Shown here piece after piece: positions 57,149 through 64,000 of a stretch of 64,000 nucleotides of DNA. Both the position numbers and the translations under genes were made by a program. The stretch comes from Hanamia sp. Its GTDB lineage: Bacteria > Bacteroidota > Bacteroidia > Chitinophagales > Chitinophagaceae. Under the pieces are notes generated by a model. It made no database searches. It saw only the letters and a list, made by a program, of their open reading frames with translations, and had not been told where the DNA came from. The number at the start of each line of letters is the position of its first letter. Within the stretch, counting starts at the first letter, position 1. The stretch covers positions 139,225 through 203,224 of the forward strand of contig CBDCJQ010000002.1 in the NCBI GenBank assembly GCA_965217965.1, written 5' to 3'.

Positions 57149-57496
57149 TAAAACTTTTTTGCCCCGCCAATAAATACATTTTTAAAAAAAACATAGCCGG
57201 AAAAACAGCATTATTGAAGTTGATCACCTAATATTGCTAATAACTAAAAGTATTGCCATCTGTAATACCGGATGCAATTATTTCATCCAACGCAGGTCTT
57301 CCCGTTCTTTTGTAAGCCCAATTCATCCACACGTGAGAACCGCCGTCTGGTCTCCTGACCAACCGGCAGCAAATTAAAACGCACTGAGGCATAATTCCAT
57401 ATTAGTATGTCCCTGGGCCAAAATGATATAACCAAGAATAAATGCTCTCAGCCAGCGTAAGATAACAATCAACCATAATTTTTATACATTAGTGTA

Positions 57497-61385: not shown

Positions 61386-61602
61386 TACTAATGTATATAA
61401 AATATGACTGCTTGTTGTCTTATGCCGGCTGAGAGCATTTAATCTTTGTTATATCATTTGGGCATAAAAACATACTATTCTGGAATCATGGATCAATGCG
61501 TTTTTAATTTTTGCCGGTGGTCAGTCCGAAGGACTCCCTTGGAGGAGACCAGACGGCGGCTCTCACGTGTGGATAGGTTGGACTCGCGAAAGAACGCGAA
61601 CA

Positions 61603-62346
61603 GTCGAGTAGGCAAAGGCATTTCAGCCCAAGCCGCTCAAAGAACCGTACGTGAAAGTCTCCCTTCATACGGCTCGTATTATCCAATCATGCTTTTATTC
61701 CAATCTTCCAATGATAAAACAACAAAGGGGTTTCTGCTTGCATCAATTGATACTTCTTGTACAACCTGTTCTTGCCTCGTATCTTATATGTGTTCTTCAT
61801 CCACTTGCGGATTAGTTCATTCAGATAATAAAATACGCTATGTGCTTCATCTCTGTTGAACCTTGTGTAGTAATTGATCCAGCCACGTATTTTAGGATTT
61901 AGCTTCTCTGCAAACCATTCTAACGACTGTGTACTCCACTGCGTTCGCAACACTTCTTTGATAGCTGTTCTGATACTCGTTTTGGCTGCATTGCAGATAG
62001 CTGCACTAAACACTAATAAGCGTTTTGCTCTGCCAAACTTATCCTTCACTGTTCTCGGCTGAAAACTATAACTTAGAAAGGTGAAGCTTTCATTATCGTG
62101 CTTTTCACAGCGCTGATAGTTTTTGCAATACACAATCTTCGTCTTTTCAGGATGCAGTGTTAATTCAAATTCCTGCATTCTTGTTTTCAGTTCTTCCAGC
62201 ATCTGATCAGCTTCTTCTTTACTGCTGCAATGTATTACGATGTCATCAGCGTAACGCTCAAAAGGACATTGCCGTTGTGCTTCATCCATCCACTTGTCAA
62301 AAGCATGATGCAGGTATATGTTAGCTAACAACGGACTAATCACTCC
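61603..62346 (-). mobile_element. 3' half of a group II intron (probably bacterial class D): RT/maturase C-half plus domains V and VI
   Basis: DV GAGCCGTATGAAGGGAGACTTTCACGTACGGTTC at 61675-61642 (AGC triad); DVI ending CCTACTCGAC at 61603. Confidence 0.9.
61687..62346 (-). pseudogene. ltrA: Group II intron reverse transcriptase/maturase, C-terminal half
   Basis: GVISPLLANIYLH, FERYADD, LHPEKTKI, FTFLSY, IRGWINYY; no endonuclease domain; RT0-4 N-part absent. Confidence 0.9.
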
Positions 62347-63958
62347 TCGTACACAATTGGTAATTTTTTTTATTTTGCTCATTTTTGTTCTCCTTTAAGG
62401 GTATGGAGTGCCTGATATCTATACTATTGTCACCAACCACAACCTCCTTTACCAGCAATCTTAAAATCTTCTTTTTTTCTTTTATATCCAGTTGATGAAC
62501 ATTAATGCCTAGCTGGTTTTTAAAGCTTTCTGCATCCAGGTATTGAAGCCGTTGATCCAATGCCAGCTCATGATTTTTCAGATTCTCCAACTCTTTCTCT
62601 GTGGTATTAACCCGCCTTTGTAATTCCGGCATTCGGGTTCTTAATTGCCCTATAGTGATAAGACCCTCCTGGTAAGCATCTAATAATTTATCCATTGACT
62701 GTGATAATTTATTACGCTGCCTGAGCATGGCTTCTTTTTGTTTTAATACAGGACTAGCCTTTCTTGTTTCTTCCACTCTTTTTTCGACTTCTCTTTGGAT
62801 CAGCATTGGGTCTTCTAATAACTCTGCTATCTGCTGCCACACAACATTGTCCAGGTAGTCTTGCCTGAGGGGTTTGCAATTACACTTTCTTACTCCTTCA
62901 AAGCGATAAGGATCTGAACCAAAACATCTGTAATAATAAATCCTTTTTTTTGCTGATGTTTCTGTATACGTTCTGTATAAAGAATAGCCGCATTCACTGC
63001 ACACCATCATACCCTGCAGCAATGTTTCTACTTTTGTATTCCGCTGTGAATGGAGCTTATTGCTTTTTAACCTTTCCTGTGCGATATCAAAAACATCCTG
63101 GCTGATTATAGCCGGCACCGGGATTTCTATCCATTCTTCTCTTGGCTTTTCCCTGTTACACCCATTCTTTACTGCAAATCCGCCCTTTGCTCTTAATGGT
63201 TTAGTAATTCTTTGGCGTTCTGCATGCTCTGTTTTTCCATAACAAGCTTTACCACAATAAGCAGGATTTCGAAGCATTGCCCAGATAACAGAACGTTCCC
63301 ATTTACCTGTATTTTTTCTTGTCGGTATTTTTTCAGCAGTAAACTTTCTGGCAACGGTGCCTATGCTACAAAAATCTTCTGTATACATCCGGAACAGTTC
63401 CTTTACCACTTCAGCTTCCTTTTCATTGATTTGATAATAAGCTGCGGCATCCTCGGTCTTCCTGATATAGCTATAGCCATAAGGCGCACCACATAATACA
63501 TTCACCACCCCTGATTTGGCTTTATAACGTTTCCCTCTGCGGCACCGCTCCTTAATAATTGCCCGTTCGTACTCTGAGATCATGCCCTGAAACTGTAATA
63601 ACAACGCTTCTTCCGGAGTATCTGCTTTTGGTGAGTTAATAAATAATACTTCCGTACCACACGATGCAAATTCATCCATTAATACTACCTGATATGCATA
63701 ATTGCGGCTCAGGCGGTCAGGACTATAAATTAATATCGCCTGTATCTGACCTTCGGCACTCAGGTCTCTTACTCTTTCAAGTCCAGGCCTAACTAATATA
63801 GCACCACTATACCCTTCATCTTTAAGCACATACTCATCCGGAACAACATAACCTTGCTGTTCTGCAAAACTTAAGAGTTCGTCCACCTGACTGCCAATGG
63901 TTTTATTCTCCTTCTGCTGGTTCGAGGACACTCTGGTGTATATGGCTGCTGTTTTCAT
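62336..63958 (-). CDS. Large serine recombinase
   Basis: YTRVSS catalytic Ser, DEGYSG, DRLSR, GAPYGY, zinc ribbon CSECG..YYRC, coiled coil. Confidence 0.95.
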   Translation of the reverse strand: MKTAAIYTRVSSNQQKENKTIGSQVDELLSFAEQQGYVVPDEYVLKDEGYSGAILVRPGLERVRDLSAEGQIQAILIYSPDRLSRNYAYQVVLMDEFASCGTEVLFINSPKADTPEEALLLQFQGMISEYERAIIKERCRRGKRYKAKSGVVNVLCGAPYGYSYIRKTEDAAAYYQINEKEAEVVKELFRMYTEDFCSIGTVARKFTAEKIPTRKNTGKWERSVIWAMLRNPAYCGKACYGKTEHAERQRITKPLRAKGGFAVKNGCNREKPREEWIEIPVPAIISQDVFDIAQERLKSNKLHSQRNTKVETLLQGMMVCSECGYSLYRTYTETSAKKRIYYYRCFGSDPYRFEGVRKCNCKPLRQDYLDNVVWQQIAELLEDPMLIQREVEKRVEETRKASPVLKQKEAMLRQRNKLSQSMDKLLDAYQEGLITIGQLRTRMPELQRRVNTTEKELENLKNHELALDQRLQYLDAESFKNQLGINVHQLDIKEKKKILRLLVKEVVVGDNSIDIRHSIPLKENKNEQNKKNYQLCTRSD

Positions 63959-64000
63959 ATACTGAAGTTTGTTCTATTAATTTATATGATGATTGCTCAG

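Follow-up and report, generated by a model that had tools for sequence, protein, structure and literature searches.

Large serine integrases of the phage type (Bxb1, phiC31, TP901-1, A118 and SPbeta SprA) share a three-domain enzyme and insert DNA conservatively, without target duplication, through an attP site in which inverted-repeat arms surround a central dinucleotide. Matching core dinucleotides are normally required by these enzymes. The window analyzed here, a stretch of 64,000 nucleotides from Hanamia sp. (C2:139225-203224; contig C2 is GenBank CBDCJQ010000002.1 of assembly GCA_965217965.1), contains most of a 2.2-kb mobile element that encodes an enzyme of the same three-domain type and that lies inside the reverse transcriptase (RT)/maturase gene of a group II intron. 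Unlike the phage-type systems, this element is without phage or conjugation genes and is found in many copies per genome, and its attB is a degenerate protein-coding motif present in many genes rather than one locus. Based on the element's structure, junctions, copy number, target specificity and conservation, all of which could be observed directly, we consider it about 90% probable that this is a small insertion sequence (IS)-like integrative element whose large serine recombinase targets the DNA of the RT4 motif of group II introns and splits the RT/maturase gene.

Other described systems share some of these properties. In the clostridial transposons Tn4451/Tn4453 (TnpX) and Tn5397 (TndX) and in the multi-targeting clade, the recombinase likewise serves as the transposase, a circular form is presumed and several insertions per genome occur. 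DUF4368 is a marker common in this TndX/TnpX-like multi-targeting clade (Durrant et al. 2022, PMC10083194). By comparison, the element described here carries no resistance or conjugation cargo, its recombinase lacks DUF4368 (among Pfam matches at E ≤ 0.01), and its target is a long conserved coding motif as opposed to the short GA-centred site of the TndX/TnpX transposons. The skin (SpoIVCA, in sigK), SPbeta (SprA, in spsM) and fdxN (XisF) elements are likewise located inside coding sequence, where precise excision would restore the gene; each of these elements occurs as a single copy under developmental control and interrupts a host gene, whereas the element described here is multi-copy and splits the gene of another mobile element.

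Group II twintrons and other nested introns, IStrons and IS within introns also represent one mobile element inside another, and insertions are tolerated in intron domain IV. Unlike nested introns, which arise by RNA-guided retrohoming, or IS that insert non-specifically, the invader here is a DNA element that recognizes the coding motif of the intron via a site-specific recombinase. The IS607 family likewise comprises minimal IS with a serine recombinase and no target duplication, but the IS607 TnpA is small, with an N-terminal helix-turn-helix (HTH) and little target specificity, whereas the enzyme described here starts with the catalytic domain, followed by large C-terminal domains. With a score of 36.9 bits against the IS607 model NF033518 (cut-off 110) and an N-terminal catalytic domain, it falls outside this family. 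No description of a recombinase element targeting intron RT genes was found in the literature searched, including PMC10083194 (in which the main text and the supplements consulted name no RT as a target), an intron-neighbourhood paper and a Thiomargarita paper; an element type specialized on group II intron RT genes has apparently not been described before.

All features of the element and of its host intron are on the minus strand, and window coordinates past 64000 are extrapolated (C2 coordinate minus 139224). The intron starts with GTGTG at 65778, followed by the D1-D4 ribozyme (65725..65607; RF01999, 104 bits) and by the N-terminal half of the RT (65116..64538), which ends with KGTPQGGV directly upstream of the element. 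On the other side, the C-terminal RT/maturase half (61687..62340), severed from the N-terminal half, begins with ISPLLANIYL and contains the YADD motif and the maturase X domain; the 231-amino-acid open reading frame (ORF) at 62382..61687 matches only RVT_1 profile positions 124-204 and GIIM in Pfam. Domains V and VI are found at 61603..61677 (RF00029, 64.4 bits against a gathering score of 40 bits, full model 1-77), and the intron ends with ..CTCGAC at approximately 61603. An earlier, sequence-only reading of this DNA had described YADD and domains V/VI as intact and had proposed to look for the intron 5' half beyond 64000; the motif and both domains are indeed present, and the 5' half is present where it was sought. 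Without the insert, the intron would measure approximately 1.98 kb, and its joined RT scores 422 bits, in one stretch over profile positions 2-352, against TIGR04416, the NCBIfam equivalog for group II RT/maturase (cut-off 300 bits, profile length 353). With ribozyme domains, a catalytic domain V and an RT/maturase ORF in domain IV, the host element is a mobile group II intron.

The mobile element itself comprises 2197 bp including one core copy (window 62339..64535, with ends set from the junctions) and carries three co-oriented genes; 62341..64000 is the part inside the window, and the last 535 bp lie past the window end. Its left end at 64535, AGCTTTACGTACACAC, and its right end, TTGTGTACGAGGAGTG (62341..62356), form an imperfect terminal inverted repeat. 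The right end, which represents a P-arm, is the same in all seven copies found in this genome and is conserved in 65 related loci. The crossover was mapped to the N-T dinucleotide (mostly AT) that opens the I/L codon in QGG(V/P)(I/L)SPLL, with attL reading target..N-T / AGCTTTACGTACACAC.. and attR reading ..TTGTGTACGAGGAGTG / N-T..target. For the copy in the window, the seven junction pairs place the attR core AT at 62339..62340, the first two bases of an Ile codon, and the attL core at 64537-64536. Put together around a single copy of the core, each of the seven flank pairs yields an open frame that reads KGTPQGGVISPLLANIYL, EGTPQGSPLSPLLSNIVL or EGVPQGGVISPLLSNIYL; recombination at the 2-bp core was thus conservative, without target duplication or base loss. 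The sequence-only reading had placed the start of the RT remnant at GGA GTG (approximately 62346) and the crossover inside QG^G, which has to be corrected on both counts. GGAGTG belongs to the element, of which it forms the conserved end, the RT-derived DNA starts at the core AT (62340-62339), and the crossover is in the I/L codon of QGGV(I/L)SP, two codons downstream. The earlier junction was two codons early because the last 6 nt of the element, GGAGTG, mimic the G-V codons of the target.

From these junctions, attP is predicted to be TGTGTACGAGGAGTG-AT-AGCTTTACGTACACA, with arms that are imperfectly inverted around a perfect CGTACACA core, and the restored (empty) site is predicted to be GGTGGTGTT-AT-TAGTCCGTTG. 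In one relative, L046, attP is perfectly palindromic (TGTGTACGTGGAGTA-AT-TACTCCACGTACACA). Since this palindrome and an inverted insertion at another locus, L016, both fit, N-T was taken as the symmetry centre; a TA core located one base to the right was rejected, as it would need a shifted centre for inverted copies. Across loci, the second core base is nearly always T and the frequency order of the first base is A > C > T > G. In the attB consensus, the conserved bases coincide exactly with the first and second codon positions of G-T-P-Q-G-G and S-P-L-L-x-N.

The gene encoding the large serine recombinase (63958..62336, 540 amino acids) contains an N-terminal catalytic domain, PF00239 (Resolvase; 104 bits, profile 1-144 of 145), as well as PF07508 (Recombinase; 1-102 of 102) and PF13408 (Zn_ribbon_recom; 1-57 of 58), in agreement with the previous description of a recombinase with an intact serine and zinc ribbon. 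Residues 6-12 form the motif IYTRVSS, which is of the Y-x-R-V-S type; based on what is known of the family, we take the aligned serine of this motif to be the nucleophile. Residues 38-509 align to SPbeta SprA and residues 284-515 to the C-terminal domain of the A118 integrase. This domain composition is the one that defines the large serine recombinase family, in which the large C-terminal part comprises the Recombinase domain and a zinc ribbon with an embedded coiled coil, and the enzyme is predicted to be active in recombination. Scores remained far below the cut-offs of the named large serine recombinase equivalogs in NCBIfam (CcrB, 134 bits against 900; XisF, the second-best match, 109 against 375; CcrC, 91 against 900). 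The recombinase frame ends with ..YQLCTRSD*; its last sense codon, for D, shares bases with the core and the TAG is part of the RT-derived DNA, and hence the stop codon is supplied by the target, just as the sequence-only reading had noticed. Depending on the copy, the recombinase has 540, 545 or 550 amino acids, and a circular form would give 562. The best 120 homologue clusters (75-94% identity, 531-580 amino acids) remain alike through ..YQLCTRS and diverge immediately after it, as expected for frame-shifted SPLLAN codons.

A survey of the window's own assembly (6.25 Mb, 3 contigs) found the recombinase region seven times, in all cases inside a group II intron RT gene and at the same codons; the 5' flank ends with ..G(T/V)PQG(G/S)(V/P) and the 3' flank resumes with (I/L)SPLL(A/S)N.. 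in 7/7 copies. These copies, labelled A to G with A being the one in the window, are distributed over three host intron families, i.e., A and B (family 1), C, D, E and G (family 2), and F. Copy C is located at C2:45.9-48.2 kb, copy D at C2:2.54 Mb, copy E at C1:2.88 Mb and copy G at C1:11-13 kb. As for copy A, the joined RT of copy C matches TIGR04416 in one stretch over the whole profile (414 bits). No element copy was found outside an RT gene in this genome. A tblastn search of the genome with the joined RTs found no uninterrupted RT gene, just 14 halves and small fragments, a genome-wide six-frame scan found no intact RT4 motif, and no uninterrupted copy (empty site) of any of the three intron families was found in the genome at the DNA level.

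Six of the element copies are identical save for the crossover base (element position 2196), and copy G differs by two substitutions and a 109-bp deletion within the recombinase gene. Within one family, the host introns show 3-9% divergence that extends as far as the junction, whereas the elements are identical; in family 2, the 380 nt beside attL are approximately 9% divergent between the haplotypes of C/E and D/G. The three families share no nucleotide homology, and therefore only site-specific integration could place identical elements in them. These comparisons suggest that the insertions are recent and largely independent, with at least four independent integrations needed. Within family 2, each 5' haplotype occurs with each 3' haplotype, which gives four combinations (5' pairs C+E and D+G; 3' pairs C+G and D+E), and the attR core tracks the 3' haplotype. 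This mosaic pattern suggests crossovers inside the identical 2.2-kb elements between distant loci, and crossovers between element copies could possibly lead to genome rearrangements.

More than 6000 relatives of the recombinase were found in a word-indexed search, and 43,555 at E ≤ 0.001. Eighty loci from other genomes and metagenomes were inspected, the genomes being those of Chitinophaga, Paraflavitalea, Lacibacter, Flavihumibacter, Algoriphagus, Lentimicrobium and Bacteroidota metagenome-assembled genomes, and 72 of these loci could be classified. The insertion was found in the RT motif in direct orientation at 53/72 loci and in inverted orientation at 6/72, had one direct and one inverted flank at 4/72, had one RT flank and one other flank at 3/72, and was located elsewhere, outside an RT gene, at 6/72. 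The proposal of the sequence-only reading that a serine recombinase element occupies a conserved RT motif has thus held up, and the check that it suggested, whether homologous recombinases routinely abut RT4, came out in its favour, in 7/7 copies here and in 59/72 loci elsewhere, with 7 more mixed, and also in plasmids of Bradyrhizobium and Streptomyces. Since the 7 copies and the 59 loci share the motif position, the junction is not a chance occurrence. Mixed direct/inverted flanks were seen in the metagenome loci L033 and L034 and others, the flanks of L033 being two RT N-terminal halves; recombination between oppositely oriented copies could explain such flanks.

More distant relatives (41-53% identity), including some from Alphaproteobacteria and Actinomycetota, are likewise located inside RT genes. 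Among these are P0121 (52% identity), P0147 (41%), the relative on a Streptomyces plasmid (47%) and the one on a Bradyrhizobium elkanii plasmid (53%), which is inserted in inverted orientation and nested in an IS66. A Pseudomonas pDK1 homologue (38% identity) was found outside RT genes, and the RT-targeting clade hence does not take in all relatives of the recombinase.

The two other genes of the element are ORF1 (64434..64090, 114 amino acids) and ORF2 (64115..63903, 70 amino acids), the latter overlapping the recombinase start and reaching into the window with 63903..64000 only. ORF1 shows HTH_11 and ribbon-helix-helix (RHH) RHH_1 matches, both weak and sub-threshold, and its structure model consists of three helices in the N-terminal part and two in the C-terminal part (predicted local distance difference test, pLDDT, 75). 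A fold search with ORF1 gave nothing significant; the RHH proteins CopG, Arc and AmrZ and the HTH proteins KorA and ArdK resemble it only locally. ORF2 encodes a helical protein with a conserved N-terminal helix, for which the structure model is of low confidence beyond one long helix. Among the related loci, ORF1 was open in all 60 near-full-length tblastn matches (54-95% identity) and ORF2 in all 70 (44-85% identity). In both, the third codon position is the most variable, which identifies them as real genes; all three genes of the element, including that of the recombinase, are intact and subject to purifying selection. A frame that is read in from the RT N-terminal half, stays open for 186 codons into the element and ends 20 nt before the recombinase ATG was considered as a candidate fusion gene, but was rejected because it has an early stop in half of the relatives and because third-position periodicity favours ORF1 and ORF2. 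In the Bradyrhizobium element, a gene annotated as CopG-family (RHH) occupies the place corresponding to the accessory genes. ORF1 and ORF2 could possibly encode a regulator or a recombination directionality factor.

Several further group II intron-related sequences were observed in this genome. The homing site of the intron that carries copies A and B is a dispersed repeat (window 57279-57477 and 61440-61602; C2:1382518-1382645, C2:1384709-1384812 and C2:609311-609393), of which several unoccupied look-alikes with 73-76% identity cover the exon junction; no Rfam match or unusual fold was found for it. Three ORF-less group II intron-like copies of approximately 691 bp (C1:2805752-2806443, C2:2993982-2994672 and C2:3006299-3006988) are approximately 69% identical to intron A over the 5' 384 nt and approximately 82% identical in domains V/VI; since all RT genes are split, no RT is available to these copies in trans. 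At C2:1540132-1543389, an intron-like shell has its 5' ribozyme part and domains V/VI 3.26 kb apart, and the space between them is taken up not by an RT but by a decayed IS66-like transposase. In copy F (C1:2798700-2800070), a 1.28-kb IS with at least 8 genomic copies further cuts the 3' RT half, 120 bp past attR. Approximately 4.8 kb past the window end, a 2.4-kb repeat (C2:208056-210468) is present in at least 9 near-identical genomic copies.

Taken as a mobile element, the insert would be expected to excise as a circle, in which the joined ends form attP, TGTGTACGAGGAGTG-AT-AGCTTTACGTACACA. The recombinase would then join attP with an attB of approximately 50 bp by conservative site-specific recombination, the attB being the stretch of group II intron RT genes that encodes the RT4 motif G(T/V)PQG(G/S)x(I/L)SPLL(A/S)N. 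The crossover would take place on the N-T of the I/L codon, with zero bases gained or lost. As the invariant codon positions 1 and 2 provide approximately 24 fixed bases, the element can recognize very different introns. Insertion splits the RT/maturase gene in the looped-out domain IV of the ribozyme and thereby disables intron mobility, and a directionality factor, possibly ORF1 or ORF2, might allow reversal.

Some observations weigh against this interpretation. In copies C and G (CT against AT) and in L019, attL and attR do not have the same first core base, which is at odds with the usual requirement of serine integrases. The first core base appears to be tolerant of mismatch. The ratio of direct to inverted insertions is 7:0 in this genome and about 9:1 elsewhere, even though a palindromic AT core predicts equal orientations. 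Neither an attP circle junction nor an empty site was found in the assembly or in the retrieved contigs, and the same search found no tandem element copies or circular contigs. Moreover, copies A and B may not be independent. Both are identical over 3611 nt, covering the intron 5' end, the element and 174 nt beyond it (to 62165), but 11 differences are found over the final 562 nt of the intron, and they are located in different exon contexts with a similarity of only approximately 75%. Some copies may therefore have been produced by gene conversion or composite-intron movement rather than by integration.

If the association with the intron were accidental, a 5'-truncated intron or a deletion junction would happen to lie beside an unrelated recombinase gene. 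The window alone contains just the 3' half of the intron, and 5'-truncated group II introns are common as a result of incomplete reverse transcription. We nonetheless give this explanation practically no credence, given that the 5' half is found upstream at a distance of exactly one element, with its end on the corresponding codon, that the same junctions occur in 7 copies and three intron families, with joined flanks that form a full RT, and that the arrangement recurs in other phyla. The element could also have multiplied mainly as a passenger, i.e., one ancient insertion could have been copied by retrohoming of a composite intron or by gene conversion, without the recombinase being the agent of spread. 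The long identity of A and B in dissimilar exon contexts and the mosaic flanks of family 2 would fit such a history. Retrohoming or gene conversion could not reach three non-homologous intron families that carry an identical element, and the attL flanks of family 2 diverge beside elements that do not; furthermore, three intact genes under purifying selection and inverted insertions at the same centre elsewhere also speak against this history, and spread mainly as a passenger therefore seems very improbable.

Another explanation is that the element is kept because it benefits its host, either by silencing retroelements or by working as a switch that can be reversed, comparable to skin, SPbeta and fdxN, with excision restoring the RT/maturase. 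Silencing of 7/7 RT genes is compatible with this, as is in silico excision, which gives open frames across the junction in A-E, with A and C scoring as full-length RT/maturase; directionality control by two conserved small genes of DNA-binding type is conceivable. On the other hand, a selfish element is typically recognized by just such features, namely multiple and identical copies, off-target insertions (6/72), insertion in either orientation and a distribution over several phyla. Nothing visible connects the element to a regulatory programme of the host, and copies F (IS in the RT half) and G (deletion in the recombinase gene) are decaying, making a host function unlikely. A two-way role of the integrative element itself, as a controller of retroelement activity in addition to a parasite, can be suggested only tentatively and seems rather doubtful: the recombinase, together with ORF1 or ORF2 as a directionality factor, would excise the element precisely and re-arm the RT/maturase, and the composite intron could carry the element to further sites and other hosts by retrohoming with an RT provided in trans. 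If true, the DNA element would possess a second, RNA-based route of spread and could turn group II intron mobility on or off throughout the genome.

Current annotation pipelines label this arrangement as a "recombinase family protein" beside two "reverse transcriptase domain" fragments, and insertion of the element could account for some of the "degenerate" intron ORFs in genome annotations. A natural recombinase that accepts a degenerate attB of approximately 50 bp with approximately 24 fixed bases, and that is seemingly tolerant of core mismatches, is also relevant to integrase engineering. For the biology of mobile elements, the integrative element described here represents hyperparasitism between two classes of selfish DNA, in which the DNA element finds a harbour through a protein motif that the retroelement has to keep if it is to retain its polymerase. 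Taking into consideration that all 7 intron RT genes of this genome are knocked out and none is intact, the element may act as a brake on intron proliferation.

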